Positions 27,418 through 50,103 are shown, counted from the first letter of the stretch. The stretch is 64,000 bases of DNA from Candidatus Woesebacteria bacterium GW2011_GWA1_44_23 (GCA_001001045.1 LCIL01000005.1:21409-85408); one strand, 5' to 3'. The notes: a model not told the origin generated them from the letters alone. Made by a program: numbers and translations.

Positions 27418-27418
27418 T

Positions 27419-29886: not shown

Positions 29887-29913
29887 CAAAATTGGAGTTA
29901 TAATTCCATCACG

Positions 29914-30132
29914 GTGGCTATTATATATGAAAGTATGAAAAAAACTATTGGGGAGCTTATCGACGGACTGTCTATTACTAACAACAAGATCTTCCATCTC
30001 GTCGACAAAGTCCAGCGCAACGAGCATACGCGCGAGGATGCAAAAAAAATCCAAGATTTAAATAAGTTAAGAAGTGAGTATATGAATGCTATAAACGAAT
30101 TCTTTAAGGAAAGGATAGATATAAAAGTGTGA
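29914..30132 (+). CDS. small hypothetical coiled-coil protein (72 aa)
   Basis: Its stop overlaps the next gene's GTG start (translational coupling). No similarity recognised. Confidence 0.3.
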   Translation: MAIIYESMKKTIGELIDGLSITNNKIFHLVDKVQRNEHTREDAKKIQDLNKLRSEYMNAINEFFKERIDIKV

Positions 30133-30917: not shown

Positions 30918-31018
30918 ATCTCTTGAAGGAATGGGGTATTATACACATTCGGAGAGAAGAGTAATTCCATACCTTCCCTGCTGAGAATCGGGTAAAATGG
31001 TGCGTATAGAATATCCAT

Positions 31019-33372: not shown

Positions 33373-34091
33373 AAAATCTACTGGTTTATGTAAGTAAAGA
33401 TAAAAAGTTTAACCGGGAGTGTGAGACTCTGGCCAAAATCCAAATTGACAACAGTCTTCGTTTAAAGTGGAGAAAAGAAGATATTTTAATGGTCACTAAC
33501 TTTGATTATGAGTATCGGGGAGTTAAAGCTATCGTTGTAGGGGACGAGAATTATTGTGCAGTCAGGCCAAGATCGATTAAAACTTCGATAATCCCCCACT
33601 TAATTGAAAAGGGAATCATAGAAAAAAGGCATATTTACTGGAATCATGATTTTGACGCTTTTCAATTGCATTCTATCAAAGATGAAGAATTGGGACTAGA
33701 CGGTTTTGATGCGGGCTTTACCGACTACGGTTGGAAAAACGACTGGTGTTTGGGAAGTGATTTTATAAAGGAGAGCGCAAAAGACATCTTTGAGTGGCTG
33801 AGGGACGCAATATTTGCTAATTGGGAGGATGAGGAAATACTCGGAAGAATTACGAGAAGGAATACACATAATATCAACTCGAGAATAAAGAAAATGAATA
33901 TAACTTATCAGATTGGAATGAAAAACGTTGATTTTAACTACAAAATAGCTGCAAAACCGCTAAAAGTTCTCCACTTCCATCCGCATAAACCGGGGCTCCT
34001 AGACATCTTCATGTACGGCAAAAACCAAACGGACAAACCCCTTATGCCTAAGGGTTTAATCAATATATTTAATAAACACGGAATAAAGTAA
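33369..34091 (+). CDS. hypothetical protein (glycan-locus associated)
   Basis: 240 aa, no recognisable motif. Start overlaps the upstream stop. Confidence 0.45.
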   Translation: MKNLLVYVSKDKKFNRECETLAKIQIDNSLRLKWRKEDILMVTNFDYEYRGVKAIVVGDENYCAVRPRSIKTSIIPHLIEKGIIEKRHIYWNHDFDAFQLHSIKDEELGLDGFDAGFTDYGWKNDWCLGSDFIKESAKDIFEWLRDAIFANWEDEEILGRITRRNTHNINSRIKKMNITYQIGMKNVDFNYKIAAKPLKVLHFHPHKPGLLDIFMYGKNQTDKPLMPKGLINIFNKHGIK

Positions 34092-34260
34092 ATACGTTAT
34101 GAGCAAACCATCAGTGGTGGCAATCTTGCCGAATTTTTAAAAAGTATTAGAAAAAGGTGCGAAAACCTATAGAGATCCATAATATTTGCAATCCAAATAT
34201 TAATTCCCAAACGAATATCCTGGGTATCGGAATGAAGGTCATGGAAATTTTCAGAAATAT

Positions 34261-34944
34261 ATGAATAGAGATTTAACAATAATTTATTACTCATCTAATC
34301 GGGAAGTGCCCGAGTTTGAGACCAGAATTAGGAACAATATTTTAAAAGTTTGTGGCGATTTGCCCATAATAAGCGTTACTCAAAAGCCGATAGACTTTGG
34401 AAAAAATATTGTTGTTGGAGATGTGGGAGCTTCTGGGTTTAACATGTTTAGGCAAGTTCAAATTGCCTGCAAGGAGGCAACAACGAAGTTCGTAGTTTCT
34501 GCTGAAGCGGATTGCTTGTACCCCCCGGACTATTTCACCTTTATTCCCGAGAAGGACAACGTATGTTACCGTAATAAAAATCTATATGTAATGGGTCAAT
34601 ATAGAACCTATTTCTACAAAAAGGAGGAAGGTGCAACGCACGCCCAAGTGGTCGGGCGGGAGTTCTGCTTAAGAACTCTGGATAAACTTTTTGAAGGAGG
34701 TCCGAATTGGTCAATCAAGGAGAGAAATTTCCCCAAAGAGAGGACTCATCAAAAAAAGGAGGATGTTTTTGGCAGTGACGAAATTGAATTCTACGAGACA
34801 AAAAATCCGATTGTACAAATAAAAACAAGCCACAGCATGCGACATTACACTCATTCTGATAGAATACCTCGTGACGAACTTCCCTATTGGGGCAAGGGGG
34901 TAGATTTTAGAAAAAAATATTACGATATCGGATTTAGGCATTAA
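34261..34944 (+). CDS. hypothetical protein, paralog family B (QPIDFGKNIV motif), possible GT-A-like
   Basis: Shares ...V(S)..QPIDFGKNIV...(E)AD/EHD..LY.P..F with the 35578..36321 product. Confidence 0.45.
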   Translation: MNRDLTIIYYSSNREVPEFETRIRNNILKVCGDLPIISVTQKPIDFGKNIVVGDVGASGFNMFRQVQIACKEATTKFVVSAEADCLYPPDYFTFIPEKDNVCYRNKNLYVMGQYRTYFYKKEEGATHAQVVGREFCLRTLDKLFEGGPNWSIKERNFPKERTHQKKEDVFGSDEIEFYETKNPIVQIKTSHSMRHYTHSDRIPRDELPYWGKGVDFRKKYYDIGFRH

Positions 34945-34946
34945 AT

Positions 34947-35576
34947 ATGAAACTAATAGATGCAATTAAAGAGCAGCACGGAAGGCCATTTACAATCCCC
35001 GATTGCTCCCGTGATGAACTCCCCGAATGTTTTAAACAAATGGGCTACAAAACAGGGGCAGAGGTCGGGGTTTATAAGGGGGCGTTTACCGAAAAATTCT
35101 GTAAAGCAGGCTTAAAAATGTATGCCATAGATCCCTGGAAGGCATATCAGGGAGCCGGCCGTACTCAACAGGAACAAGCAAGGCAAGACTTCCTTTACGG
35201 GCATACTCAAAGGACTCTCGCTCCCTATAAAGACTGTACAATAATCAGAAAGACGTCGATGGACGCTCTAAACGACTTCGGCCCGGGAAGCCTGGACTTT
35301 GTCTATTTGGACGGCGATCACCGCTTCCCGTACGTGGCACAAGATATTTATGAATGGAGCGAGAAAGTCAAAAACGGTGGGGTGGTCTCCGGGCATGATT
35401 ATTTCTGCACGGATCCACGGGCAAAAAATGTTTTGTGCCAGGTGGGCGCGATAGTAGATGCTTATGTTAGTGCCTTCGGAATTGAAAATTTTTATGTATT
35501 CGGACGGTCCAAATCACTGGAACTTGAGGCCAAAGATGACAGATATCTAAGCTGGATGTGGATTAAGCCTCTCTGA
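34947..35576 (+). CDS. class I SAM-dependent methyltransferase (Methyltransf_24/TylF-like)
   Basis: GAEVGVYKGAFT...FVYLDGDHRFPYVAQDIYEWSEKVKNGGVVSGHDY. Confidence 0.55.
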   Translation: MKLIDAIKEQHGRPFTIPDCSRDELPECFKQMGYKTGAEVGVYKGAFTEKFCKAGLKMYAIDPWKAYQGAGRTQQEQARQDFLYGHTQRTLAPYKDCTIIRKTSMDALNDFGPGSLDFVYLDGDHRFPYVAQDIYEWSEKVKNGGVVSGHDYFCTDPRAKNVLCQVGAIVDAYVSAFGIENFYVFGRSKSLELEAKDDRYLSWMWIKPL

Positions 35577-35577
35577 C

Positions 35578-36321
35578 ATGACAAGCACAAAAGGGTGCAT
35601 TTACTACACCGATAACCGCCCGAAGTCTTTTATTTTGGATAAATGCCGTGAGGAAATTTTAAAAGGCTGGAAAGGTCCCCTGGTTTCGGTTTCGCTTCAA
35701 CCGATTGACTTCGGCAAAAATATAGTCTTGGCAGGGGTAGAACGCGGACTCCCGACTATGATCAAACAAATAACAATGGCTTTGGAGGCACTGGATACTG
35801 ACATTGTCTTTTTTCTGGAACATGATGTTTTATATCACCCGTCTCATTTCGATTTCACTCCCCCAAAGGAAGAAATCTATTATTACAATCTCAATAACTG
35901 GCGCTGGGGAATTAAGGAAAATTTTGCTATTACATACGATGGTCTGACCTCCCTTTCTCAACTCGCATGTTACCGAAAAACTGCCCTAAACCATTATAAA
36001 GGAAGACTTAAATACATCATTGACCACGGACTTAACAAGGACCAAAGCCGGGATCCGAGATGGGGACGGGTTATGGGCTACGAGCCCGGAACAAAGCCCA
36101 GGAGGAGGGGTGGTTTTTCCGATGAAAAGTTTGAGATTTGGAAAAGCGATTTTCCAAACATAGATATCCGCCACAGACATACATTTTCCCCGCCGAAATA
36201 CAATTTGGCTGATTTCAAACATCAACCGATAAACTTCCGCCAAGAGAAAATTGAAAATATTCCTTACTGGAATCTGAAAACGTTGCGGGATCAATGGCTG
36301 GATAAATACATAATAAATTAA
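35578..36321 (+). CDS. hypothetical protein, paralog family B
   Basis: Paralog of the 34261..34944 product. Confidence 0.45.
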   Translation: MTSTKGCIYYTDNRPKSFILDKCREEILKGWKGPLVSVSLQPIDFGKNIVLAGVERGLPTMIKQITMALEALDTDIVFFLEHDVLYHPSHFDFTPPKEEIYYYNLNNWRWGIKENFAITYDGLTSLSQLACYRKTALNHYKGRLKYIIDHGLNKDQSRDPRWGRVMGYEPGTKPRRRGGFSDEKFEIWKSDFPNIDIRHRHTFSPPKYNLADFKHQPINFRQEKIENIPYWNLKTLRDQWLDKYIIN

Positions 36322-36361
36322 ATGAATAAAGGCATGGTTCTCCACACCGCTTTTCCCGGCT

Positions 36362-37474
36362 TTGATAATGCCTAAGTATGCTGTATTATTGCCTCACGCG
36401 AAACCTATGGCTGATCTTTCAATATTAATACCGGCACGGAATGAAATATTTCTGGCCCGCACGATAGAAGACCTCCTGGCAAACATCGAGGCTGATACCG
36501 AGATCATCGCTGTTTTGGACGGGGTACCCGCCAACCCTCCGATTCCCAAAAATGAAAGAGTAAATGTAATCTCCCTTTCCGAAAGTATCGGACAAAGGGC
36601 GGCAACTAATCTTGCCTGTAAATTAAGCCGCGCCAAATATGTAATGAAGGTAGACGCACACTGCGGATTTGATAAAGGTTTTGACCGAAAAATGCTCGAG
36701 GCATTTAAAATTACCGGAGACAACGTTACGATGGTCCCAATTATGCGTAACCTCTGGGCATATGACTGGAAATGCTACCACTGCGGCTGGAAAAAATACC
36801 AAGGCCCCACTCCGGAAAAGTGTGGGCAGTGCGGTAAGGGAGACAAAATTAGAAGAAAGATGCTTTGGATCGGAAAACATAACCCTCAAAGTACTTCTTA
36901 CTGCTTTGACTCGTCTCCCCATTTCCAGTACTTCGAGGATTGGAAACACCGGCCGCAATACGAAAAAGACAAGAGAGAAACGGGACTGACTGAAACAATG
37001 AGCCTGCAGGGCAGCTGCTGGATGTTGACCCGCGAAAAATACTGGGACCTTAATGTTTGCGAAGAAGCATTTGGGGGTTGGGGTTCTCAGGGAATTGAAG
37101 TTGCGGTTAAAACCTGGCTTTCCGGAGGTAGAGTTATTGTCAATCATAAAACTTGGTATGCACATATGTTTAGAACCCAAGGGGGCGACTTCGGGTTCCC
37201 CTACCCGATTTCAGGAAAGGATCAGGAAAAGGCGAAAAGATATGCAAGGGATTTGTTTTTCAACAATAACTGGAATAAGCAAATTCGCCCTCTTTCCTGG
37301 CTCATCGAAAAATTCTGGCCGGTGAAGGGGTGGGCAGAAGAAGACTTGACCAAGCTTAAAACAAACACTTTCAGATTTAAAGAGAAAGCGGAGCCAAAAC
37401 CTGCCGAGAGTGAGCCCGTTACAAGTGATCCGGTAAGAAACCATCAGACGGGTGTTATTTACTCCGCCACTTAA
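36362..37474 (+). CDS. glycosyltransferase family 2-like protein (QGSCW paralog) with inserted CxxC...CxxC zinc-ribbon
   Basis: LSILIPARNE...; WKCYHCGWKKYQGPTPEKCGQCGKGD; MSLQGSCWMLT. Confidence 0.55.
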   Translation: MIMPKYAVLLPHAKPMADLSILIPARNEIFLARTIEDLLANIEADTEIIAVLDGVPANPPIPKNERVNVISLSESIGQRAATNLACKLSRAKYVMKVDAHCGFDKGFDRKMLEAFKITGDNVTMVPIMRNLWAYDWKCYHCGWKKYQGPTPEKCGQCGKGDKIRRKMLWIGKHNPQSTSYCFDSSPHFQYFEDWKHRPQYEKDKRETGLTETMSLQGSCWMLTREKYWDLNVCEEAFGGWGSQGIEVAVKTWLSGGRVIVNHKTWYAHMFRTQGGDFGFPYPISGKDQEKAKRYARDLFFNNNWNKQIRPLSWLIEKFWPVKGWAEEDLTKLKTNTFRFKEKAEPKPAESEPVTSDPVRNHQTGVIYSAT

Positions 37475-37648: not shown

Positions 37649-40600
37649 ATGGCAGTAACATACGTCAAAGCTAGTACCCCCAATACAGATGCGGCGGGAG
37701 CCTTTACAGTAACAGGTGCAGCTCCTGCTGTTGCTGGGAATATTATCATCCTTCAAATTTTTCAGGACGGTACTACTGACGGGGCGGTAACTCAAACCAG
37801 TGCTACCAATATTACTGCTCTAGATGGTACGGCTAATACATGGACTGCTATTACCGAACAGTCGGTAGGAGCATCAGACGAAGGTAGACAGTATCTATGG
37901 GTAGGGCGTTCAAGCGGAAGGTCTACTCCCACATTTACAGGCGGCAACACAACTTCAGAGGATCTTTACCTCAGGATGTATGAGTTTAGCGGAGTAGATG
38001 CTAATGCCACGACTTTATCTGGGATTCTTGAAAACGGTACTGCAGGAACTGTAGCTAACGGCACTGGAACATCTGCGTCCGTTTCTGATACAAGCGTTCA
38101 GACACTGGGAGATGGCCGGCTCGCATTAAATTTTATCGCTGTAAACGATGATCCCCAGGCAGCAGAACTAGCCGCAATGACTGGTGAAACAGGGGGGGAT
38201 TGGGCTTATCCTGTTGCTGCGTGGGGTTCTAGTTCTGGCACTGACGGTACAATCGCTTTAGTTACAGCTTCTATCCCTTCTTCGGGAACAATTGATGGAG
38301 GCTCAGATGCCATAACTTCAGCTGCTTGGGGGGTGATAGGCTTTGCCCTTAAACCTGAATTTACTCCAACAGTAGCTTTAAGTACCCCTGCAGATGACGC
38401 GACAGGAGTAAGTACCACCCCAGCCCTAGTTTTTACAGGAACAGATGCTAACTCAGATGAAGTGGAATATGAGGTACAGGTAGATACAGTAAACACTTTT
38501 GATTCTTCGTCAGCCACTATGGCTAGCAATAGTGAAAGTACTTATGACCATGATTACATTGATAATTATAATTCAGTACCTCCTTCATGGTATGGTCAGA
38601 CATTTACCCCACCTTTTATGGGACCCGTCACTTCAGTTAAGTTTTATTTAAAAGGTTCCGATGGTTTAACGGGTAACATGCCAGTTAGATTGTATGCCAC
38701 AGACACCTCTGGTACTCCAGTAGGTGAAATATTAGCCACATCAGCTAATTTGGATTTATCTAGTCTTTCAACTTCTGCTTATGAACTAGTAGAGTTTATA
38801 TTTAGTTCCCCATACACAGTTGAGTCTGGGGTTCTGTATGCATTAACTTTAGAAAATCTTAGTTCCTCTAACCTATATGTTGGTGCAGATATTAGTTCTC
38901 CTGCTTATACAAATGGTACTGCAATTAGTATGAGTCCCGGTGGTTACCTGACTGTTGCTAGTGATTTATGTTTTTATGTTTATAGTGGAGGTTCTCTTCT
39001 TGACATCTTCTCCCTCGCCGATAACGATGCTAACTGGGCAGGCACAGGAGCACCTAATCCCTTTCCTTCAGGAAATGAAATAACCTATACAGTACCGGCA
39101 GGAAGTGCTTTAGCCGCAGGAACTACTTATTACTGGAGAGTACGAGCTATTGACCCTCTAGGAAGTAATGCCTGGGGATCTTGGAGTCCTGGGGCACATA
39201 GTGGATATAGTGAGTTTACAACACAGGCAACAGGTTCATTTTCGCCTTCGATTTCTCCATCTGTAAGTCCAAGTGCGTCTCCTTCGGTATCCCCCTCAGT
39301 CAGTCCGTCTATCTCGCCTTCTGTAAGTCCCTCAGTTAGCCCTAGTGTTTCCCCAAGTCTATCTCCCAGCGTTTCTCCTTCTGCATCTGTTTCGCCATCA
39401 ATCTCACCCAGTGTTAGTCCTTCGGAAAGCCCATCAGTATCGCCCTCGGTCTCGCCTTCAGTTTCACCCTCTGCATCCATATCTCCATCGACCTCACCCA
39501 GTGTTAGTCCATCAGTAAGTCCCAGTGCAAGTGCTAGCCCATCGGTCTCACCATCGGCTAGTCCGTCGGTGTCTCCCAGCGTTTCTCCTTCCGTAAGTCC
39601 GTCGGCTTCTGTTAGTCCGTCTATGAGTCCGAGTGTATCGCCCTCTGTAAGTCCCTCTGCATCAGTTTCACCATCTATCAGTCCTTCTGTGTCTCCCTCC
39701 GTCAGCCCCAGTGTCAGCCCCAGTGTCTCACCCAGCGCAAGTATCTCTCCAAGTGTTAGTCCCAGCGTGTCGCCAAGTGCTTCTCCTTCTATTTCACCTT
39801 CCGTTTCTCCATCAGCTTCTATATCTCCGTCAGTTTCGGAAAGTGTAAGTCCATCCGTTAGCCCAAGTGCGAGTGTAAGCCCGTCGGAATCACCGTCAGT
39901 TAGTCCATCTGTATCTCCAAGCTTTAGCCCTTCGATCTCAGCCAGTATATCGCCAAGCATATCTCCGAGTGTGTCCCCTTCGGCTTCCGTATCCCCATCG
40001 GTTTCCCCCAGTATCAGCCCTTCTGTCTCCCCAAGTGCCAGCCCAAGTCAAAGCCCATCGGCATCAATTAGTCCTTCCGTAAGTCTATCCATTTCTCCTT
40101 CTTTCTCTCCGTCCGCATCCATTAGTCCCAGTGTCTCTCCCAGCATATCGCCCTCGATCAGTCCATCAGTATCCCCTTCGGAGTCTCCCTCTGCATCAGC
40201 TAGCCCATCTATTAGCCCTAGCGTATCTCCTTCTGTCTCGCCCAGTGCTTCTGTGTCCCCTTCGGTAAGTCCGTCTGCAAGTGTTTCGCCTTCTGTCTCC
40301 CCATCGGCCAGTCCATCTGTCTCTCCGAGTCAAAGTCCATCGATTAGCCCATCAATTAGTCCGAGTATATCTCCTTCCGTTTCGCCTTCAGCGTCGATTA
40401 GTCCGTCAATTAGTCAATCAGCAAGTCCGTCAGTGTCACCGAGTGCGAGTATTAGCCCTTCACTAAGTCCAAGCATGTCTCCTTCTGTTTCTCCTTCTGG
40501 GTCAATCTCACCCTCAATAAGTGCTTCCGTTTCGCCTTCTGTCTCCCCTTCAGCATCTATTTCTCCGTCAATAAGTCCTTCTATTAGTCCGTCTGTTTCC

Positions 40601-42538
40601 CCATCGACTAGTCCATCTGTCTCTCCGAGTCAAAGTCCATCGGCTTCGATTTCCCCGTCTGTCTCTCCAAGCGTTTCTCCTTCAATAAGTCCATCGGTAA
40701 GTCCAAGTTTGTCTCCTTCGGTAAGTCCTTCAGCTTCGGTTTCACCAAGTATCTCGCCAAGTTTGTCTCCTTCGGTTTCCCCCAGCGCAAGTATTTCACC
40801 TTCCATTTCTCCAAGCGTTTCTCCTTCGATAACTATATCATCGTCTATCAGTCCAAGTGTGTCACCCAGTGTCAGTCCATCGGTAAGTCCTTCGGTATCA
40901 TCTTCTCAAAGCCCTTCCGCATCAGTATCCCCATCAGTTTCACTGTCCGTAAGCCCAAGTGTATCTGCGAGCGTTTCCCCGTCGGTTTCCCCTTCAGCCG
41001 GATCAAGCGAGTCTCCATCACTTTCACCAAGTATAAGCCCATCAATTAGCCCCTCAGTTTCCCCATCTGTCAGTCCTTCGATTTCCCCTAGTGTTTCGCC
41101 ATCAATCAGTCCTTCTGCTTCGATTTCTCTATCTGTAAGCCCGTCGGTTTCACCATCAGTCAGTCCGTCGATAAGCGCTTCCGTTTCACCAAGCCCCAGT
41201 GTTTCTCCTTCGACTAGTGCGAGCATTTCTCCTTCCATTAGCCCATCAGTCAGTCTGTCGGTGTCACCCTCAATTAGTCCAAGTGTCTCTCCTTCGGTTT
41301 CACCAAGTATCTCGCCAAGTTTGTCTCCTTCGGTTTCCCCCAGCGCAAGTATTTCACCTTCCATTTCTCCAAGCGTTTCTCCTTCGATAATCAGCCCTTC
41401 GGTGTCACCAAGTATAAGCCCATCCATTTCGCCCAGCATCTCACCTTCTCAAAGTCCGTCAGTGTCCGTATCACCTAGCCAATCTCCCTCCGCCTCTCTG
41501 TCACCGTCAGTATCGCCCAGTGCAAGTATTAGCCCTTCAATAAGTCCAAGTGTCTCACCTTCGGTTTCACCTTCTGGATCAATCTCACCCTCAGTAAGCC
41601 CTTCTGTTTCACCTTCTGTCTCTCCTTCAGAATCTATTTCCCCGTCAATAAGCCCATCCCGCAGCCCGTCAGTTTCTCCATCCATCAGCCCGTCAGCAAG
41701 TCCGTCTGTGTCACCAAGCGCAAGTATTTCGCTGTCTATTAGCCTGAGTGCTTCTCCATCTGTTTCCGCCTCGATATCGCCGTCTGTTTCACCTTCTGTA
41801 AGTCTCAGCGTTTCTCCTTCGATAAGCCAATCGGTAAGTCCAAGTTTGTCTCCTTCGGTAAGTCCTTCAGCTTCGGTTTCACCAAGCGCAGGCTTTTCAA
41901 TTTCACCCAGCGTTTCACCGTCTCAAAGCCCTTCGGCTGCGGCTCCCTCAAGTCTCAGTCCATCCGTGTCTCCATCAATTTCTCCTTCAATTGCCATTTC
42001 AACCTCACTATCTCCAAGTGTGTCCCCTTCTATCTCAGCATCCCCATCAATACCGTCTTCAATATCTCTTTCTGTATCACCAAGTGCGAGTCTAAGTCCA
42101 AGCCTGAGCCCATCGGTCGGTCCTAGCGGGAGTCCGCCAGCTTTGCCCAGCACCAGTGCCTCTTTCTCTGTTAGCCCAAGTGCCTCACCGTCACTGTCTG
42201 CTAGTGCTTCTCCTACTGAATCAGCATCACCTTCACCTGCCACGGTGGTATATTCTGCCAGCGCCAGCCCGAGTGTTTCTCCGTCGATCAGCCCCTCTCC
42301 CGCCCGCTATGCATCACCAGAAAAGCCCAGCTTTTATTATGACTCCGCTATTGTTCTCCGGGATGTGGCAAATCGTGATGTTAACTTAAGTGGGCTTCAA
42401 GATACCATACCTTCATGGAACAATGCAGGCCGGCCGAAGAATTTAAAACCCGCCACATTAGGTTTCAATATTGAGACAAAGGATCTCGAATTATATGACG
42501 GATCATTATGGCATAGGCTGCCAATGAAAAAAGTATAG
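37649..42538 (+). CDS. giant Ser/Pro-repeat surface protein (1629 aa): N-terminal globular/FN3-like region, about 1000 aa of SPSxSP repeats, conserved C-terminal domain
   Basis: RBS ggagg upstream. N-terminal region includes ...TTYYWRVRAIDPLGSNAWGSWS. Repeats SPSVSPSISPSVSPSAS.... C-terminus ...PSWNNAGRPKNLKPATLGFNIETKDLELYDGSLWHRLP. Confidence 0.8.
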   Translation: MAVTYVKASTPNTDAAGAFTVTGAAPAVAGNIIILQIFQDGTTDGAVTQTSATNITALDGTANTWTAITEQSVGASDEGRQYLWVGRSSGRSTPTFTGGNTTSEDLYLRMYEFSGVDANATTLSGILENGTAGTVANGTGTSASVSDTSVQTLGDGRLALNFIAVNDDPQAAELAAMTGETGGDWAYPVAAWGSSSGTDGTIALVTASIPSSGTIDGGSDAITSAAWGVIGFALKPEFTPTVALSTPADDATGVSTTPALVFTGTDANSDEVEYEVQVDTVNTFDSSSATMASNSESTYDHDYIDNYNSVPPSWYGQTFTPPFMGPVTSVKFYLKGSDGLTGNMPVRLYATDTSGTPVGEILATSANLDLSSLSTSAYELVEFIFSSPYTVESGVLYALTLENLSSSNLYVGADISSPAYTNGTAISMSPGGYLTVASDLCFYVYSGGSLLDIFSLADNDANWAGTGAPNPFPSGNEITYTVPAGSALAAGTTYYWRVRAIDPLGSNAWGSWSPGAHSGYSEFTTQATGSFSPSISPSVSPSASPSVSPSVSPSISPSVSPSVSPSVSPSLSPSVSPSASVSPSISPSVSPSESPSVSPSVSPSVSPSASISPSTSPSVSPSVSPSASASPSVSPSASPSVSPSVSPSVSPSASVSPSMSPSVSPSVSPSASVSPSISPSVSPSVSPSVSPSVSPSASISPSVSPSVSPSASPSISPSVSPSASISPSVSESVSPSVSPSASVSPSESPSVSPSVSPSFSPSISASISPSISPSVSPSASVSPSVSPSISPSVSPSASPSQSPSASISPSVSLSISPSFSPSASISPSVSPSISPSISPSVSPSESPSASASPSISPSVSPSVSPSASVSPSVSPSASVSPSVSPSASPSVSPSQSPSISPSISPSISPSVSPSASISPSISQSASPSVSPSASISPSLSPSMSPSVSPSGSISPSISASVSPSVSPSASISPSISPSISPSVSPSTSPSVSPSQSPSASISPSVSPSVSPSISPSVSPSLSPSVSPSASVSPSISPSLSPSVSPSASISPSISPSVSPSITISSSISPSVSPSVSPSVSPSVSSSQSPSASVSPSVSLSVSPSVSASVSPSVSPSAGSSESPSLSPSISPSISPSVSPSVSPSISPSVSPSISPSASISLSVSPSVSPSVSPSISASVSPSPSVSPSTSASISPSISPSVSLSVSPSISPSVSPSVSPSISPSLSPSVSPSASISPSISPSVSPSIISPSVSPSISPSISPSISPSQSPSVSVSPSQSPSASLSPSVSPSASISPSISPSVSPSVSPSGSISPSVSPSVSPSVSPSESISPSISPSRSPSVSPSISPSASPSVSPSASISLSISLSASPSVSASISPSVSPSVSLSVSPSISQSVSPSLSPSVSPSASVSPSAGFSISPSVSPSQSPSAAAPSSLSPSVSPSISPSIAISTSLSPSVSPSISASPSIPSSISLSVSPSASLSPSLSPSVGPSGSPPALPSTSASFSVSPSASPSLSASASPTESASPSPATVVYSASASPSVSPSISPSPARYASPEKPSFYYDSAIVLRDVANRDVNLSGLQDTIPSWNNAGRPKNLKPATLGFNIETKDLELYDGSLWHRLPMKKV
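39240..42290 (+). repeat. coding tandem repeat array, 9-nt/18-nt periodicity (SPS[VIAL]SP)
   Basis: Direct reading of the translation. Antisense ORFs (GE/TD/LG-rich) are artefacts of the same repeat. Confidence 0.85.
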
Positions 42539-42855: not shown

Positions 42856-43902
42856 GTGACTGCCCATGATTATCAAGCCAAACTAAATGGGGTACTATAT
42901 TCCCATGTTTATCGTGATCTCGCATCTGAAAAAATTTTCATTGATAACGAAGATTATCAGGCATTCGTAAACTTCTTAAATGAATACTTGTCTGACAAAA
43001 ATGTTGATGATAGTAAAAAAATATTTACAATAAGGGGGCATACTTACCAAGGAGTCCCCCGTTTACCTAAAAACTTCTCTAAACAGATTGAGCTTTTAGC
43101 CTATAAGTTAGAGCCAAATCGTTTTGACTTCCTGATAAGAGAAAATGTTCCTGGGACTACTCAAAAGTTCATAAGAGCCGTATCAACAAGGTACGCCCTA
43201 TACTACAACAAGAAACATCATCGAACCGGTTCCCTATTCAAGGATACTTACAAACTGGAAAGAATCAGCGATCCTGCACTACTACCAGGTCTAATTCGTA
43301 GCCTCCACAGTAACTTTAGTAAAAAAGACGGTGTGCCCGATCATGCTTACTCTTCATGCCCTGAATATCTTGGTCAAAGAGCATCGAATTGGATCAATTC
43401 GCAGGCTATACTTTCTAATGAAGGACTGGGTGATCAAAAGCTGTACCCGGAAAAGGGTAAACCGGAAACCGGTGTACGTGTCACCCGTTATCGCCCAAGA
43501 TCCAAAGCCAGGGTACCAGAAATAATATTATCCATTGCGATTCTGGCTATGCTAATAGCTCAAAGTATATTAAGAATCGAAACTTCTTCAACATCAAAAG
43601 CTTCATACTCGCCTCCTTCATACGCTACGGTTCTGGGTGACAAAAGGGAAGCAACGGAAGACGAAAATATAAAAACCGTAGAAGTGAATCAAGGGAAGGT
43701 TTTAATTGATACCGTTGATAATTTGGAAAGTGTAGATATCTATCGGGACGCTTTGTTATCGTCACTTAAAATTGGCGAGGCTAAGGATAATGACATCTTT
43801 GAGCTTGTTTCTGAAAGCCCGGGCTGGTATCAAGTAAAACTTATTAATGGGTCAACTGGCTATGTCTCGTCAGAATATTCGGAAATAATAACGAATTATT
43901 AA
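42856..43902 (+). CDS. IS200-like Y1 transposase domain fused to TM helix and SH3b domain (copy 2, HuH motif degenerated to FDF)
   Basis: GVLYSHVYRDLASEKIFIDNEDYQAFVNFL...IELLAYKLEPNRFDFLIRE...RYALYYNKKHHRTGSLFKDTYK...; TM helix IILSIAILAMLIAQSIL; SH3b ...SPGWYQVKLINGSTGYVSSEY. Confidence 0.7.
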   Translation: MTAHDYQAKLNGVLYSHVYRDLASEKIFIDNEDYQAFVNFLNEYLSDKNVDDSKKIFTIRGHTYQGVPRLPKNFSKQIELLAYKLEPNRFDFLIRENVPGTTQKFIRAVSTRYALYYNKKHHRTGSLFKDTYKLERISDPALLPGLIRSLHSNFSKKDGVPDHAYSSCPEYLGQRASNWINSQAILSNEGLGDQKLYPEKGKPETGVRVTRYRPRSKARVPEIILSIAILAMLIAQSILRIETSSTSKASYSPPSYATVLGDKREATEDENIKTVEVNQGKVLIDTVDNLESVDIYRDALLSSLKIGEAKDNDIFELVSESPGWYQVKLINGSTGYVSSEYSEIITNY

Positions 43903-43903
43903 A

Positions 43904-44572
43904 ATGATCAAAAAAATTATGTTATATGGCAGTTTCTTGGCTGCCAGCTCTGCTGATACGGCCGTTTTCCTTGCGTCTAATGATTATTTTCATCTTGCGC
44001 TTGCCATCCTTCTTTATTTCCCGTTAATTTATATTGCTTTTATAATATTTCCTCGCAGAACCGAATTTGCTGGGAATGTCCCAATCCACCAGGGAAATGG
44101 AATAGAGCCAAACCTGCTAACCACTAACAAGATCGGACAATTTTCCGGCTCCCCTTCCCCTTCGACCGACAGCGTCGAAGTTTCCGACATCAATAAACGG
44201 GTGTTTCTCAAAATGATTGGGGCTACGGGTTTATCCTTCTTCATTTCTTCTCTTATTTCAAAAAGGTTGCCTTCTCATGTTTTCGGGCAATCTGAAGAAC
44301 CAACAACAACCTCTATCATAGATTCCACAGGAGAGGCAGTAGACCCTGCCAAGCACCACCCCACTGACAGCTATAAAATTTCCGAGGTCGACTATGGAAT
44401 TAATACCTATTATGGCTTTATTGATGAAAATGATGGCTGGTTCATTATGGAACAAGATACAAATGCCGGAACCTACCGTTATATAAAAGGCAATGCGAAT
44501 TTTCCTGATAATTGGAGGAGCCGCGAAAGTCTTACATATGACTATTACAATAAAATTTTTGCCAAATCGTGA
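43904..44572 (+). CDS. partner membrane protein (copy 2): KR-FLK motif and conserved C-terminal domain
   Basis: DINKRVFLKMIGATGLSFFISS; C-terminus YGFIDENDGWFIMEQDTNAGTYRYIKG...YDYYNKIF. Start lies 1 nt after the upstream stop. Confidence 0.6.
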   Translation: MIKKIMLYGSFLAASSADTAVFLASNDYFHLALAILLYFPLIYIAFIIFPRRTEFAGNVPIHQGNGIEPNLLTTNKIGQFSGSPSPSTDSVEVSDINKRVFLKMIGATGLSFFISSLISKRLPSHVFGQSEEPTTTSIIDSTGEAVDPAKHHPTDSYKISEVDYGINTYYGFIDENDGWFIMEQDTNAGTYRYIKGNANFPDNWRSRESLTYDYYNKIFAKS

Positions 44573-45050: not shown

Positions 45051-46496
45051 ATGGCAACACGGTTGTATCTACCATCAACGGGGACTCCCGCGGTAACCCC
45101 CGCTTATAGTGCGTCTTGGACCGGAACTGACGAGGCGTCAAGGCTAAGTGCTGTAACAACAAAAATCTCTTCGGCGATGGCCTCTGCTTCGACCACAACC
45201 GATACCAGTAAAGTCCCGGATGCTTATCTCATGAGGCAGTACGTTTCTGATCCTTTGACCACTCAAACAATTTTAGCCCAAACAGTCAAATGGCAAATTA
45301 GAGCCTCTGAGACAAACCTATCAAACAATATTTTTACCGCAATTACTATTAGAAGTTGGGACGGTGCTTCTACTTTTCAAACACTGCTTGCTTTAACCTA
45401 TGACGGTACGGAGTTAACAACGTCTCTGGTCAACAGACAATTTAGCGCCACAACCACAGAGGTAAGTATTACTTCCGGAGACAGGTTAATTATTGAAATC
45501 GGAGTAGGTGGTGACCCTACACCCTCCGGATCCGACTTTCATCACGGATCCTTGCGTATTGGAGACGCATCATCAACGGACCTGCCAGAAAATGATACCG
45601 ATACAAACGATTACAATCCCTGGGTCGAGTTTGCAAATACTTTGACATTCGCTGTGGCCGGCCCTTCGTTTTCGCCATCGGTTTCTCCTTCAGTTTCTCC
45701 TTCGGTTTCTCCTTCTATTTCCCCTAGTATTTCTCCGTCAGTTTCTCCCAGTATTTCTCCTTCTATTTCACCTTCAATTTCACCATCTGTTTCCCCTAGT
45801 ATTTCTCCGTCAGTTTCTCCCAGTATTTCTCCTTCTATTTCACCTTCAATTTCACCATCTGCCTCGATATCCCCTTCTATTAGTCCAAGTGAGTCTCCTT
45901 CGGTTTCACCATCAATCAGCCCGTCAATTTCACCATCTGAATCACCATCGACAAGTCCTTCGGTAAGTCCCAGTGCTTCACCGTCGGTCTCACCGTCAGA
46001 AAGTCCATCCGAAAGCCCATCAGAATCTCCTTCGGTTTCTCCGTCAATTTCTCCCAGCGCTTCGCCTTCGGTATCACCATCCGAATCTCCGTCAGCGAGT
46101 CCTTCTATATCCCCTTCAATATCACCCAGTCCGAGTATGTCTCCTTCAACCTCACCAAGCACATCTCCTTCAATAAGCCCTTCCGAATCACCATCGGCTA
46201 GCCCTTCAATTAGCCCTAGCTTATCTCCATCTGTTTCTCCATCAGAAAGTCCATCGGAGAGCCCGTCCGTTTCTCCAAGTGTCTCACCGTCTGTTTCACC
46301 TTCCATTGCCTCCAGCTTTTCACCTTCTATCTCACCTTCGGAAAGCCCGTCGGTGTCCCCGTCGGTGTCCCCGTCCCTTTCCCCGAGTGCCTCCCCAAGC
46401 ATTAGTCCGTCTGTTTCTCCTTCAGCTTCGATTTCACCATCTTATTCACCGTCTGTTTCACCTTCAGTCTCTCCATCGCAATTAGCCCTTCCATAA
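45051..46496 (+). CDS. Ser/Pro-repeat surface protein, N-terminal part (unique 200-aa domain plus SPS repeats); probably continuous with the next two ORFs
   Basis: N-terminus MATRLYLPSTGTPAVTPAYSASWTGTDEASRL.... Repeats begin about aa 205. The frame ends inside the repeat at a junction sequence that recurs at 47740. Confidence 0.6.
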   Translation: MATRLYLPSTGTPAVTPAYSASWTGTDEASRLSAVTTKISSAMASASTTTDTSKVPDAYLMRQYVSDPLTTQTILAQTVKWQIRASETNLSNNIFTAITIRSWDGASTFQTLLALTYDGTELTTSLVNRQFSATTTEVSITSGDRLIIEIGVGGDPTPSGSDFHHGSLRIGDASSTDLPENDTDTNDYNPWVEFANTLTFAVAGPSFSPSVSPSVSPSVSPSISPSISPSVSPSISPSISPSISPSVSPSISPSVSPSISPSISPSISPSASISPSISPSESPSVSPSISPSISPSESPSTSPSVSPSASPSVSPSESPSESPSESPSVSPSISPSASPSVSPSESPSASPSISPSISPSPSMSPSTSPSTSPSISPSESPSASPSISPSLSPSVSPSESPSESPSVSPSVSPSVSPSIASSFSPSISPSESPSVSPSVSPSLSPSASPSISPSVSPSASISPSYSPSVSPSVSPSQLALP

Positions 46497-49110
46497 GCCC
46501 CTCCCTTTCTCCCTCGGTTAGTCCGAGTCTGTCTCCATCGGTCTCCCCGAGTGCCTCCCCAAGCATTAGTCCGTCTGTTTCTCCTTCAGCTTCGATTTCA
46601 CCATCTATGAGCCCCTCCGAATCACCATCTACGTCTCCTTCCACGTCACCGTCGATTTCGCCTTCGGTTTCACCAAGCCCGAGTATTAGTCCCTCAGTAA
46701 GTCCGAGTTTTTCTCCGTCAGTTTCATCGTCAATCTCACCAAGCATTTCACCCTCCGTCTCGCCGTCACCGTCGATATCTCCTTCAATAAGTCCGTCCGT
46801 TTCACCTTCCCCCGGCTCCAGTTTTTCTCCATCCATAAGTCCGTCAATCTCGCCTTCGATTAGCTCTAGTGTTTCGCCGTCAGTCAGCCCGTCGGTATCA
46901 CCATCTCCCTCCGTCTCGCCTTCGGTTTCGCCAAGCCCGAGTATTAGTCCCTCAATAAGCCCGAGTGTCTCTCCGTCAGTCTCTCCCAGTGTAAGTTCAT
47001 CGGTTTCTCCCTCAGTATCGCCATCGGCGTCGATCTCGCCATCTATATCTCCAAGCAAGTCGCCATCAGTGTCTCCAAGTGTATCCGTCAGTATCTCCCC
47101 TTCGGTTTCGCCTTCACCATCCATCTCGCCTTCAGTAAGCCCATCGGTAAGTGCGTCGATCTCTCCTTCTATCAGTTCCAGTGTCTCGCCTTCTGTCTCC
47201 CCAAGTCCTAGCATGTCCTCATCGATAAGCCCGTCGGCGTCCCCGTCTGTTAGTCCGTCCGTTTCCTCATCTGTTAGTCCGTCTATTTCCCCGTCACCGT
47301 CAGCATCACCTTCGAATAGCCCATCGGTAAGTCCATCGATCTCTCCTTCAGTAAGTCAAAGCATTTCCCTTTCGGTTTCTCCTTCCCCATCCGTCTCGCC
47401 TTCGGTAAGCCCATCGGTTTCCCTGTCTGCATCGCCGTCCGGATCGCCGTCTGTTTCACCATCGGTTTCTCCCTCACTGTCTGTTTCGCCATCCGTCTCC
47501 CCGAGCCCAAGTGCTTCACCATCCGTAAGTGCCTCGATCTCTCCTTCAATAAGTCCGTCCGTTTCGCCTTCCCCCGGCTCCAGTTATTCTCCTTCCATAA
47601 GTCCGTCAATCTCGCCTTCAATTAGCCCGAGTCTGTCTCCATCGGTCTCCCCGAGTGCCTCCCCAAGCATTAGTCCGTCTGTTTCTCCTTCAGCTTCGAT
47701 TTCACCATCTTATTCACCGTCTGTTTCACCTTCAGTCTCTCCATCGGTGTTTCGGCATCCATTAGCCCATCTACCTCGCCCTCGGTTTCCATATCTCCGT
47801 CTATTTCACCCAGTAAATCTCCGTCTATTTCACCAAGTGTTTCTCCCAGTATTTCCGCCTCTATTTCTCCAAGTCCTAGTATTTCGCCTTCAATTAGCCC
47901 AAGTGTGTCTCTTTCGGTGTCTCCCAGTGTTAGCCTGTCAATTTCTCCCTCCGTCTCGCCATCACCTTCCCTGTCCCCGTCCTTTAGTCCAAGCCAATCT
48001 CCTTCGGTTAGTCCGAGTGTTTCCCCGTCAGTCAGCCCGTCGGTATCACCATCTCCTTCGATCTCGCCATCGGTGTCACCAAGCGCGAGTATCAGCCCTT
48101 CAATAAGTCCGAGTATTTCTCCGTCAGTTTCTCCCAGCGTAAGTTCATCGGTTTCTCCCTCGGTATCGCCCTCACCGTCGATTTCACCTTCAATGAGCCC
48201 ATCGGTAAGTCCATCAATCTCTCCTTCAATAAGTCAAAGCATTTCCCCTTCGGTTTCGCCCTCTATTGGTGTAAGTATTTCTCCATCGGTTAGTCCCAGC
48301 GTCTCAGTATCCAAATCCCCGAGTATTTCACCGTCAAAGTCTCCGTCCTTAAGTCCGTCGGTTTCACCCTCGCCTTCCCGTTCGCCCTCTCTTAGCCCAA
48401 GTGAGTCCGCTTCTGTTTCACCCTCTGCTTCACTTTCGCCGTCGGAATCCGCTTCGGTAAGTCCTTCCTTCTCACCATCGGCTTCCATCTCACCCTCAAG
48501 AAGCCCTTCTATTTCACCTTCTATAAGTCCCAGTATTTCACCCTCAAAGTCTCCATCAGCAAGCCCGTCCACTTCTCCCTCTGCTTCAATCTCGCCATCT
48601 TTGAGCAAGTCTGCCTCACCTTCAAGATCGCCTTCAGTTTCCCCGTCAGGATCGGCGTCAATTTCACCTTCATCAAGCTCATCGGTCTCACCTTCGGTAT
48701 CAATCTCGCCAAGTGTTTCTCCTTCGGTTTCTCCAAGCCCCAGTCTGTCACCTTCTGTAAGTCCAAGTAAATCGCCCTCTCTTTCTCCGTCAATCTCACC
48801 AAGCTTTTCTCCGTCGGTTTCTATCTCCCCTTCATTAAGCGCATCGGTCTCGCCAAGCCCGAGCGTTTCTCCTTCCCCTTCCCTCTCCCTGTCCATTTCA
48901 CCAAGCGTTTCTCCGTCGGCTTCTATATCACCTTCGGTTTCGCCACCAAATTCAATTTCACCTTCCATTTCCCCCTCAAGCGCTCCTGTTGCGAGCGCCT
49001 CGCCTTCGGTTTCCCCGTCCCCATCAGCTGCCGGGGTGGCTTCTTCTGTCTCGCCGTCACCTTCTCCGGCGGTAATTGTTTACTCGGCCAGTGCCAGCCC
49101 ATCAACCTCT
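45660..49110 (+). repeat. coding SPSxSP tandem repeat array spanning three ORFs in three frames
   Basis: Seen directly. An 80-100 bp sub-repeat recurs at about 46370, 46531 and 47641. Confidence 0.8.
46607..48106 (+). CDS. SP-repeat ORF (frame open from about 46481); middle segment of the same repeat gene
   Basis: Pure SPSxSP repeat translation. The frame differs by one from its neighbours. Confidence 0.45.
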   Translation: MSPSESPSTSPSTSPSISPSVSPSPSISPSVSPSFSPSVSSSISPSISPSVSPSPSISPSISPSVSPSPGSSFSPSISPSISPSISSSVSPSVSPSVSPSPSVSPSVSPSPSISPSISPSVSPSVSPSVSSSVSPSVSPSASISPSISPSKSPSVSPSVSVSISPSVSPSPSISPSVSPSVSASISPSISSSVSPSVSPSPSMSSSISPSASPSVSPSVSSSVSPSISPSPSASPSNSPSVSPSISPSVSQSISLSVSPSPSVSPSVSPSVSLSASPSGSPSVSPSVSPSLSVSPSVSPSPSASPSVSASISPSISPSVSPSPGSSYSPSISPSISPSISPSLSPSVSPSASPSISPSVSPSASISPSYSPSVSPSVSPSVFRHPLAHLPRPRFPYLRLFHPVNLRLFHQVFLPVFPPLFLQVLVFRLQLAQVCLFRCLPVLACQFLPPSRHHLPCPRPLVQANLLRLVRVFPRQSARRYHHLLRSRHRCHQARVSALQ

Positions 49111-49365
49111 TTCAGTCCTTCCATCCCCCCAGTTCCGGAAGAGCCGATACTGTATAAAAATCCAACTATTTTCAGAAACAAAAGAGTATCTGTAGGTGTG
49201 AGCTATGTTCCAAGCGGACAGCCAAGACTCCCGTCATGGAACACGGCGGGAAGACCCAAAAACCCAAGGGCAAGAGTCGTCGGATTTAATTTCGCAACTT
49301 CCAGTTTAGAATATTGGAATGGATCAAAGTGGTTAATACTACCTATGAAGAGGATCAAAACTTAG
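47905..49365 (+). CDS. SP-repeat ORF (frame open from about 47750) carrying the conserved C-terminal domain
   Basis: C-terminus ...RLPSWNTAGRPKNPRARVVGFNFATSSLEYWNGSKWLILPMKR. Confidence 0.55.
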   Translation: MSLSVSPSVSLSISPSVSPSPSLSPSFSPSQSPSVSPSVSPSVSPSVSPSPSISPSVSPSASISPSISPSISPSVSPSVSSSVSPSVSPSPSISPSMSPSVSPSISPSISQSISPSVSPSIGVSISPSVSPSVSVSKSPSISPSKSPSLSPSVSPSPSRSPSLSPSESASVSPSASLSPSESASVSPSFSPSASISPSRSPSISPSISPSISPSKSPSASPSTSPSASISPSLSKSASPSRSPSVSPSGSASISPSSSSSVSPSVSISPSVSPSVSPSPSLSPSVSPSKSPSLSPSISPSFSPSVSISPSLSASVSPSPSVSPSPSLSLSISPSVSPSASISPSVSPPNSISPSISPSSAPVASASPSVSPSPSAAGVASSVSPSPSPAVIVYSASASPSTSFSPSIPPVPEEPILYKNPTIFRNKRVSVGVSYVPSGQPRLPSWNTAGRPKNPRARVVGFNFATSSLEYWNGSKWLILPMKRIKT

Positions 49366-49445: not shown

Positions 49446-49474
49446 TTGATATGGGGTGGTAAGATTAATATAAT
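49446..49474 (+). promoter_or_regulatory. near-consensus promoter TTGATA-17-TATAAT, 12 nt upstream of the ATG of the mini-gene
   Basis: TTGATA at 49446-49451, 17-nt spacer, TATAAT at 49469-49474. The leader is very short and has no obvious SD. Confidence 0.45.
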
Positions 49475-49486
49475 AATTTAAACAAT

Positions 49487-49681
49487 ATGGCAATTTCTTC
49501 ACCGGTACTTGTTGAGATAGGTCAGGGTTTGTCTTTAATGGTCGGTCTCCCGACGATCGCATCTTGGAATTCTCAGAAGCGTCCGCAAAAAGCAAAAAGG
49601 GGTACGTTCGGATTTAACACCCAGACAAAAAGTTTGGAATATTGGGACGGGTCGGGGTGGTACACTGCCAAGCTTAGTTAG
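49487..49681 (+). CDS. 64-aa stand-alone copy of the conserved C-terminal domain of the SP-repeat proteins
   Basis: MAISSPVLVEIGQGLSLMVGLPTIASWNSQKRPQKAKRGTFGFNTQTKSLEYWDGSGWYTAKLS aligns with the C-termini of the 37649 and 47905 products. Confidence 0.5.
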   Translation: MAISSPVLVEIGQGLSLMVGLPTIASWNSQKRPQKAKRGTFGFNTQTKSLEYWDGSGWYTAKLS

Positions 49682-49731: not shown

Positions 49732-49935
49732 ATGCTTAATTTCATTAAAAATATCGGTCCCGTAGAGTGGGTGGTTATTCTTCTTATTCTGATAATAATT
49801 TTCGGCCGCAAAATACTTGTAAGCCTTGGCCGTGCCAGTGGTGAAACAGTTAGGGAACTGAAAAGCGTTAAGAAAAGCTTGACCGACGCTGTTGAAGGAA
49901 CAGAGGACAAGCCCGAGAAGAAGGAGGTGTCTTAA
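49732..49935 (+). CDS. tatA: twin-arginine translocase subunit TatA/E
   Basis: N-terminal TM helix followed by the FG hinge: WVVILLILIIIFGRKILVSLGRASGETVRELK. Confidence 0.7.
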   Translation: MLNFIKNIGPVEWVVILLILIIIFGRKILVSLGRASGETVRELKSVKKSLTDAVEGTEDKPEKKEVS

Positions 49936-49941
49936 AAATTT

Positions 49942-50103
49942 ATGTTTCAATCGATAGGGACAACAGAGTGGATAATAATTGCCGTCTTGGTACTTTTACT
50001 CTTCGGAGGAAAAAAGATTCCGGAATTTTTCAAAGGCATCGGTGAGGCCGTCAGGGAGTTTAAGAAAGCTTCAAAAGATACCGACGAGAAAAAAGAAGGA
50101 TAA
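49942..50103 (+). CDS. tatA: second TatA/E-family protein (53 aa; below the ORF-track cutoff)
   Basis: [53 protein letters not shown]. Confidence 0.65.

Follow-up and report, generated by a model that had tools for sequence, protein, structure and literature searches.

The stretch analysed here, 64,000 nucleotides (nt) of one strand from Candidatus Woesebacteria bacterium GW2011_GWA1_44_23 (GCA_001001045.1, LCIL01000005.1:21409-85408) with a G+C content of 45% and hereafter referred to as the window, carries two genes for giant Ser/Pro-repeat proteins, which we call fibres, followed on the same strand by a 64-amino-acid (aa) open reading frame (ORF) and by genes of the twin-arginine translocation (Tat) system. 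The mini-protein encoded by the short ORF consists of a single domain that also forms the C-terminal end of both fibres, where we refer to it as the foot. The locus comprises the following features:

37649-42538, plus strand: fibre 1, 1,629 aa, no signal peptide, with N-terminal globular domains of ~530 aa, a ~1,020-aa Ser/Pro stalk and a C-terminal foot
42347-42535, plus strand: fibre-1 foot domain, the last ~63 aa with the tail LPMKKV, matching positions 5-65 of the hidden Markov model (HMM) of the mini-protein family (E 1.4e-20)
45051-49365, plus strand: fibre 2, one gene lying in three frames, 1,673 aa when intact, with a jelly-roll head (aa 1-~200), an SP-repeat stalk and a foot
49195-49362, plus strand: fibre-2 foot domain with the tail LPMKRIKT, HMM positions 10-65 (E 2.4e-21)
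49446-49474, plus strand: promoter-like site TTGATA-17-TATAAT, recognized by an 11/12 consensus match only
49487-49681, plus strand: mini-protein gene, 64 aa, isoelectric point (pI) 9.9, all-beta, the foot domain alone
49732-49935, plus strand: tatA paralogue 1, 67 aa, Pfam TatA_B_E at 44.2 bits (cut-off 21)
49942-50103, plus strand: tatA paralogue 2, 53 aa, Pfam TatA_B_E at 59.6 bits
50124-50873, plus strand: tatC, 249 aa, Pfam TatC at 140.6 bits (cut-off 25.1)

With TatA-family and TatC genes that score above the Pfam cut-offs and lie adjacent on the same strand, the last three features constitute a Tat translocase operon, and the mini-gene stands directly upstream of it, a position that an initial annotation had already reported and that we find conserved across loci. 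The same annotation had proposed that three segments of the window share a domain, and pairwise BLASTP bears this out: the mini-protein aligns with the C-terminus of fibre 1 at E 2e-14 (44% identity over 54 aa) and with that of fibre 2 at E 2e-13 (49% over 39 aa), and the two fibre ends align with each other at E 1e-18 (40% over 81 aa). A six-frame motif scan of the window finds exactly three copies in 64 kb, and these are the ones initially located, at the C-terminus of the 37649-42538 product, at the C-terminus of the ORF ending at 49365 and in the 64-aa ORF itself. The shared segment, given as ~60 aa, spans ~60-65 aa once the beta-hairpin upstream of the described motif is included, as the fibres match profile positions 5-65. 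Two SP-repeat proteins do end in the domain, but the '47905 product' is not a separate protein; it is the C-terminal part of one ~1,673-aa fibre, and ORFs 45051-46496, 46607-48106 and 47905-49365 are three frames of a single Ser/Pro-repeat gene. A second, independently made assembly of this organism (locus L028, 212-5239), 99.8-100% identical elsewhere, has one 1,673-aa ORF running from MATRLYL... to ...LPMKRIKT, relative to which the window is short by 64 nt (46478/46479) and by 644 nt (47747/47748). Each of these deletions, attributable to repeat collapse, shifts the reading frame, and fibre 2 is thus broken into three ORFs in the window; an intact, orthologue-like counterpart of 1,582 aa is present in locus L008. 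Gene callers and ORF lists also show long antisense ORFs rich in Gly, Glu, Asp and Leu within the Ser/Pro repeats (L004 2197-5208, L006 2745-5558 and window 39130-39960, all on the minus strand), and the true plus-strand fibre genes are missing or fragmented in such public annotations. In practical terms, gene calls at fibre loci are often wrong, be it through antisense ORFs or through assemblies that collapse the repeats.

The mini-protein gene is a real, conserved gene under purifying selection. Its product is 100% identical to 'hypothetical protein A2394_02395' of Candidatus Woesebacteria bacterium RIFOXYB1_FULL_42_36, and a search with a profile of the three window segments retrieved 207 homologues, nearly all 64-70 aa long and 58-76% identical, with Woese-, Curtiss-, Davies- and Levybacteria as named sources. 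For 44 distinct orthologues of the gene from 61 loci, the median proportion of synonymous differences (pS) is 0.77, indicating saturated synonymous sites, and that of nonsynonymous differences (pN) is 0.28; the dN/dS ratio, taken from the unsaturated pairs only, is ~0.27. Identity among mini-proteins exceeds that between mini-proteins and fibre feet (34-39%), which indicates that they form a separate, constrained lineage of the domain, and the two groups have the distinguishable consensus sequences m......l.diGqGlS.m.Glp.i.sW.t..RPk..k.GtfGFN.qT..LEyw.G..W..a.m (mini-proteins) and ..ip.WN..GRPk..k.Gt.GFN.qt..LE.w.Gs.Wl.lpmkki (fibre feet). The near-consensus promoter initially assigned to the gene is indeed present as the promoter-like site listed above, and its -10 element ends 12 nt 5' of the ATG, so that the putative transcript would have a very short leader. 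No terminator-like site was seen between the mini-gene and tatA. The mini-proteins display neither an RR motif nor a hydrophobic N-terminus. We considered the N-terminal 25 residues of the mini-protein as a candidate signal peptide and rejected it, as the stretch has no RR, is modelled as a beta-hairpin by AlphaFold2 and corresponds to a hydrophilic stretch in the fibres.

The order of the five genes is itself conserved. Four divergent mini-protein orthologues all have the neighbourhood mini, tatA, tatA, tatC, and a six-frame HMM scan places a giant same-strand ORF ending in the foot directly upstream of the mini-gene. The cassette, by which we mean one or more fibres with a foot, the mini-gene, tatA, tatA and tatC on one strand, occurs in 16 of the 19 species-representative genome loci with gaps of mostly 4-60 nt; in a sample of 40 metagenome loci anchored on TatC (at least 57% identity, upstream DNA of at least ~1 kb), the mini-gene is present in 37 and a fibre foot is found upstream in nearly all whose DNA reaches there. 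Loci with TatC at 31% identity or less have neither the mini-gene nor a foot-bearing fibre. The cassette loci belong to Microgenomates-type Patescibacteria, including one WWE3, and the genes that flank the cassette vary from locus to locus. A lineage at 43% TatC identity keeps the order as fibre, protein ending in a mini-like domain, and tat; there the mini slot is occupied by a 292-aa protein (L089 670-1548) with HATD..KRKE-type repeats and a mini-like C-terminal domain, and the search of representatives contains similar proteins of 169 and 326 aa (P0134, P0148). At L025 (4779-8159), one further species-representative locus, a fibre foot with a mini-type tail (...WLAAPLS, not ...LPMKKI) directly precedes tatA and no separate mini-gene is present, which looks like a recombination that fused fibre foot and mini-gene. 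Several of the metagenome-assembled genome records with the cassette (L010, L013-L015, L017, L018, L020, L021, L023, L025, L026) bear the titles 'uncultured Gammaproteobacteria', 'Pseudomonadales' or 'Oligoflexia'. Their TatC matches that of the window with E-values no different in range from those of loci named Woesebacteria or Levybacteria, and the organism names look like placeholders or mislabels.

This conservation bears on how closely the mini-protein and the Tat genes are connected. The mini-protein could be an accessory of fibre assembly only, such as an adaptor, a chaperone or a heteromeric partner, next to tat by inherited adjacency and without functional coupling, with Tat serving ordinary twin-arginine clients. 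The promoter-like site of its own that the mini-gene has in the window would be in keeping with such a role, as would the phage contigs in which stand-alone 49-90-aa versions of the domain lie beside ~320-aa domain proteins, and the window encodes two proteins with the motifs DRRTFLK and NKRVFLK as possible conventional Tat clients. The mini-tatA junction, however, is kept in the 16 genome and 37 metagenome loci despite their varying flanks, and also at 43% TatC identity; the 4-60-nt gaps together with the lack of a terminator suggest co-transcription; and fibres without a signal peptide would still need an export route. We therefore consider a role confined to assembly possible but rather unlikely.

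To place the domain among known proteins, we compared it with family, phage and metagenome collections. Pfam hmmscan (E up to 10) and an NCBIfam scan of the three segments returned no family. A profile search against phage protein families was productive: phrog_1325 matches the three segments at E 6.2e-7, 6.8e-5 and 1e-5 over profile positions ~40-81 of 334, near the N-terminus, with the qualification that PHROGs have no curated cut-off and that the domain alone, not the whole protein, matches. Several other phage families of ~300-360 aa also match, and the PHROG annotation of the matched families is 'unknown function'. By tblastn, 217 GenBank phage records are matched, among them proteins of Micrococcus, Streptomyces and Microbacterium phages annotated as 'tail fiber protein' or 'minor tail protein' (E 1e-5 to 1e-4 for Micrococcus and Streptomyces). 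Two of these annotated proteins, of 240 and 424 aa, were inspected, and both carry the motif internally, at ~aa 155-190. T4-like cyanophages encode ~320-aa proteins with the whole domain at residues ~12-75 (HMM E 1.8e-11), from genes between the neck genes gp14 and gp13; in Synechococcus phage S-MbCM7 (L003 2968-5844) these are clustered paralogues of ~310-320 aa with the domain N-terminal and small ORFs interleaved. Other viral contigs (L115 and L130, listed with the cyanophage clusters) have 49-90-aa stand-alone copies adjoining ~320-aa domain proteins, an arrangement that mirrors the bacterial pairing of fibre and mini-protein. In IMG/VR contigs, about half of the ORFs carry the module at the N-terminus and the others internally or at the C-terminus, with the stand-alone 49-90-aa forms beside the ~320-aa paralogues, and more than 1,000 predicted viral structures, many of them cyanophage fibre-like proteins, are retrieved at a Foldseek probability of 1.0.

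The module is widespread. An exhaustive search with the mini-family profile yields 1,106 cluster representatives (E up to 1e-3), many with a tandemly repeated core of ~40 aa in up to 17 stretches per protein (best match E 1.7e-70, 11 stretches), and the core motif reads W-x-T-x2-R-P-x5-G-x2-G-F/Y-N-x2-T-x3-E-x-W/Y-x-G-x2-W. The hhalign probability of 99.5% to the repeat profile A4 is inflated since A4 includes the window's own cores. Among the representatives, P0124 combines a signal peptide, four core repeats and a pectate-lyase-like domain, P0127 carries the motif at 414-457, ~250 aa downstream of a true Phage_T7_tail (PF03906) docking domain at 30-163, and a Sec-like signal peptide is found in 11 of 82 full-length sequences. 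The 39-aa family DUF7360 (PF24059), for which we found no papers, matches the best mini-protein homologues at 23.8-26.1 bits, below its gathering threshold of 27.6, and does not match the window sequences; the domain is related to DUF7360 and lies outside the curated family.

Judged by sequence similarity, the domain shares its ancestry with a module of ~40 aa found in phage tail fibres, tailspikes, minor-tail proteins and bacterial surface proteins, and it is a new, uncurated branch of this widespread, uncharacterised phage-fibre module. The resemblance to phage tail fibres noted at the outset therefore reflects true homology, as seen in the PHROG, tblastn and viral structure comparisons, but its specification as an N-terminal virion-docking motif does not hold: only about half of the phage ORFs have it at the N-terminus, the remaining arrangements being internal, C-terminal, stand-alone and tandem with up to 17 units, the window sequences have no match among the Pfam families of tail-fibre N-termini, and of the solved structures it is trimerisation subdomains that come closest. 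The module belongs to fibres in general and is no dedicated N-terminal docking motif. Compared with the phage proteins that are its true sequence homologues (PHROG 1325, cyanomyovirus 'T4-GC_349', actinophage minor tail), whose module varies in location and which have no Tat link, fibres of the Candidate Phyla Radiation (CPR) always carry it at the C-terminus.

Homology to phage tail-fibre and minor-tail proteins could also mean that a prophage, or another remnant of phage origin, supplied the fibre and mini-genes and that they lie beside tat by chance. We rejected this origin as highly improbable: the cassette and its flanks contain no other phage genes, but glycosyltransferases, tat, an epimerase and a LysM/M23 peptidase; many species keep the genes in this same position; neither the fibre heads nor other fibre parts match any PHROG; and the polarity of the fibres is the mirror image of that of typical phage fibres, the conserved end being C-terminal.

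The AlphaFold2 model of the mini-protein, built with 116 sequences, is an all-beta fold of six strands with a predicted local distance difference test score (pLDDT) of 89.6. A Foldseek search of the model against the PDB returned nothing at E <1e-3 (best E 0.35). The upper part of the list is nonetheless coherent, and matches to trimerisation subdomains there span E 0.35-0.47. The trimerisation domains of collagens XV and XVIII (multiplexins) top the list with probability 0.97, template-modelling (TM) scores of 0.50-0.58, root-mean-square deviations (rmsd) of 2.2-2.6 A and E values of at least 0.35; the phage CBA120 tailspike TSP3 follows with probability 0.99, an rmsd of 2.0 A over 46 columns, 24% identity and E 0.37, and phage hyaluronidase fibres, Mtd and TSP4 are among the lower matches. 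In sequence, the repeat-core profile aligns weakly to TSP3 residues 580-612, covering a linker and the C-terminal D4 subdomain (E 0.12), and to residues 370-403 of the 410-aa 'Gp49' (E 0.011), for whose PDB entry, 9D83, our literature search found nothing relevant. PDB sequence searches with the three-sequence and 116-sequence profiles gave only chance-level matches to glycosidases and fucose lectins (E at least 0.27). Strong matches of the repeat profile to designed Kelch 'SAKe' entries were rejected as spurious sums of many 11-13-residue matches. The core motif (49610-49660; profile A4) also shows short, non-significant resemblances to fucose-lectin blades (E.cWDG.GWY), WW domains (G..YYYN..T) and Kelch blades, all three- or four-stranded beta-meanders, which in the case of WW domains (E 0.03-0.4) hold at the level of the fold only.

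In TSP3, the three-stranded sheet of D4 trimerises as a beta-prism II, with Asn, Trp and Pro lining the core (PMC6517402), and these residue types are among those invariant in our motif alignment (Pro, Asn, Trp and Glu). By analogy, we infer, as the structural reading with most support, that the domain is probably a small unit that oligomerises to cap or foot trimeric fibres. The likeness to D4 (PDB 5W6F/6NW9) is that of a small beta unit with three strands placed C-terminally on an elongated trimeric spike; the trimer caps at the C-termini of the P22 and Det7 tailspikes are analogous. The CPR domain differs in its extra N-terminal beta-hairpin, in following a Ser/Pro stalk where D4 follows a beta-helix enzyme, in being part of a cellular protein and in occurring free as well. 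The collagen XV/XVIII counterpart is similarly a ~55-aa, mostly beta domain C-terminal to a long fibrous repeat and nucleates the collagen trimer, but it shares no sequence similarity with the CPR domain (13-20% identity), the CPR repeats are Ser/Pro and not Gly-X-Y, and the CPR trimer is only a presumed one. The foldon of T4 fibritin would be a functional analogue of the foot.

The same features could be read differently, with the domain as a non-covalent, lectin-like anchor to cell wall or carbohydrate, the free mini-protein occupying or regulating the same sites, and Tat a mere neighbour or the exporter of other cargo, which is essentially the model of the initial annotation. The domain is basic (pI 9.3-11.5) with conserved aromatics as in wall-binding repeats, tandem core arrays occur in secreted bacterial proteins such as P0124, beta-prism II is also a lectin fold (PMC6517402), and the weak similarity to fucose-lectin blades and WW domains points in the same direction. 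Those lectin and WW similarities are, however, non-significant (E 0.03-9), the best structural matches are oligomerisation subdomains, a mini-protein without a signal peptide would have no known route to the wall, and the tight, conserved coupling to tatA-tatA-tatC is left unexplained, so that we regard such an anchor as unlikely.

Across Microgenomates-type Patescibacteria the fibres are proteins of ~1,000-2,400 aa with variable lectin-like heads, a ~1,000-residue Ser/Pro stalk and a conserved C-terminal foot. The stalk is built of SPS-x repeats (49% Ser, 21% Pro) and is probably glycosylated. An N-terminal type homologous to that of fibre 1 (MAIS/MAVT...) heads the giant ORF of L006. The fibre-2 head has 44 homologues and no Pfam family and is modelled as a beta jelly-roll (AlphaFold2 pLDDT 94), for which the matches to TNF-like lectins, CBM6/22, C1q/TNF heads and the CocE jelly-roll have low TM scores and are to be read at the level of fold class only; neither fibre head has a usable match in Pfam or NCBIfam. 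A variable head combined with a conserved stalk and foot fits the pattern of adhesins, in which the conserved end would touch conserved cellular machinery, and this logic of conserved and variable ends is compatible with a role of the foot in assembly or attachment.

We therefore propose, and give about equal weight to its being right or wrong, that the foot is the oligomerising, cell-proximal end of the fibre, that the mini-protein is a free foot subunit and that the unit is functionally coupled to the adjacent Tat system. In this mechanism the foot would oligomerise, probably as a trimeric beta-prism, and thereby mark the cell-proximal end of the fibre; the mini-protein would co-assemble with the fibre foot or cap it, and would tie the presumably surface-located fibre to the adjacent, dedicated TatA-TatA-TatC, whose role might lie in export of the pre-folded, probably glycosylated fibre or in its anchoring at the membrane. 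The position of the mini-protein between the fibre and Tat genes hints at an undescribed route by which cell-surface fibres are exported or anchored.

Two known systems help to frame this proposal. GspB/Fap1-type serine-rich repeat adhesins are giant Ser-rich fibrils encoded with glycosyltransferases and an accessory Sec export apparatus. The cassette resembles them in its Ser-rich repeats, neighbouring glycosyltransferases and adjoining export genes, but its export genes are tatA and tatC, and in place of the long N-terminal signal peptide there are a C-terminal foot and a mini-protein; secA2, secY2 and asp genes and an LPXTG anchor were not found in the cassette of the window. In the phoD-tatAd-tatCd operon of Bacillus subtilis, a monoderm-type cell, the gene of one particular exported protein is likewise followed immediately by those of a minimal TatA/TatC, and Bacilli are known to have Tat substrate genes, phoD among them, within tatC operons (PMC3827258), although PhoD has a canonical twin-arginine signal peptide whereas the CPR fibres and mini-protein are devoid of one. 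Signal-less subunits can moreover be co-exported by Tat as 'hitchhikers' (PMC4273604), and together these precedents make a coupling between fibre and Tat plausible. The fibre-mini-Tat cassette is a new form of 'dedicated export system encoded with its cargo'.

Several observations weigh against the proposed coupling. The twin-arginine signal peptide (S/T-R-R-x-F-L-K), the defining feature of Tat cargo, is absent from the mini-proteins and from ~22 fibre N-termini, which are highly diverse in sequence and show neither a signal peptide of any kind nor an RR motif. A fibre trimer of ~3 x 1,600 aa would be far bigger than known Tat cargo, and implausibly large. The window contains candidate Tat clients with an (R/K)R-x-FLK motif, so that Tat need not serve the fibres. 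Loci L043, L044 and L046 (TatC 66-67% identity) have neither a mini-gene nor a foot-bearing fibre upstream, and L021 has a mini-gene without tat downstream. Trimerisation, furthermore, is an analogy, because the Foldseek (best E 0.35) and TSP3 sequence (E 0.12) statistics are marginal. A stronger version of the proposal, in which foot and mini-protein form a signal-peptide-independent targeting or assembly device that delivers giant pre-folded, probably glycosylated fibres to the dedicated TatA-TatA-TatC or anchors them there, strikes us as decidedly unlikely.

Should the Tat link prove mechanistic in proteins without a signal peptide, it would constitute a categorically new, non-canonical use of Tat, and delivery of the fibres to Tat by foot and mini-protein would amount to a new route for surface fibres in ultra-small episymbiotic bacteria. 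Attachment to other cells is the presumed way of life of Patescibacteria (CPR), and the apparatus for it has been studied in them almost solely through type IV pili, which are also the only subject of the work our literature search on CPR fibres or adhesins returned. The cassette would be a second, lineage-wide attachment candidate, composed of fibres with swappable lectin-like heads, an invariant foot, a tiny partner and Tat as a unit, and the fibres would reach a length on the ~0.3-micrometre scale, assuming an extended stalk of ~1,000 residues. TatA and TatC occur in Microgenomatia (PMC9166423), and statements of Tat presence are all that we found in the literature on Tat in Patescibacteria; the cassette offers a hypothesis both for the retention of Tat in minimal genomes and for the surface route of a giant signal-less protein. 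Neither the domain nor the mini-protein nor the cassette is described in any paper that we found. For phage tail fibres, in which the uncharacterised module is very common, our comparison suggests a likely structural role as a C-terminal oligomerisation or foot unit.

Two further gene groups lie close to the fibres:

29101-37474, plus strand: sugar-modification cluster directly upstream of fibre 1, with three GT2 glycosyltransferases, an RmlD-like reductase and a methyltransferase
42856-44572, plus strand: two-gene module between the fibres, gene 1 at 42856-43902 and gene 2 at 43904-44572

We infer that the first of these contains candidate fibre-glycosylation genes; in locus L008 the fibre is similarly preceded by Glyco_transf_92 and a CmcI-type methyltransferase. 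In the second, gene 1 encodes a Y1-transposase-like N-terminal region, a transmembrane segment and an SH3 domain, and gene 2 a membrane protein with two transmembrane helices in its N-terminal part, a beta-rich domain of ~90 aa at the C-terminus and, internally, a Tat-consensus motif that precedes a hydrophobic helix. The module is duplicated in the window (26257-28009 and 42856-44572), the ORFs 27419-28009 (DRRTFLK) and 43904-44572 (NKRVFLK) being paralogues (E 1e-42), and it also stands beside the mini-gene or fibre in L021 (466-2296) and L075 (1951-3698); it is possibly associated with the cassette, though not universally. The gene-2 proteins may be membrane proteins inserted by both Sec and Tat, and they are candidates for conventional Tat clients.

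At L044 (2900-5652), and also at L043 and L046, three ORFs of 618, 128 and 170 aa with no foot domain lie upstream of tatA. Two of the L044 ORFs have the N-terminal motif '...LYS..KE.WKT...LNKF.FP' in common, a PHROG scan of the ORFs that replace the fibre gave no match, and the set may represent a different group of fibre-like proteins. The window finally contains two giant ORFs, 14202-18890 (1,562 aa) and 18926-23980 (1,684 aa), without Pfam matches or the foot domain, which share ~30% identity with each other (E 3e-23); the first begins with an integrase-SAM-like N-terminus followed by a hydrophobic segment, and the second with Gly/Thr-rich fibre-like repeats.

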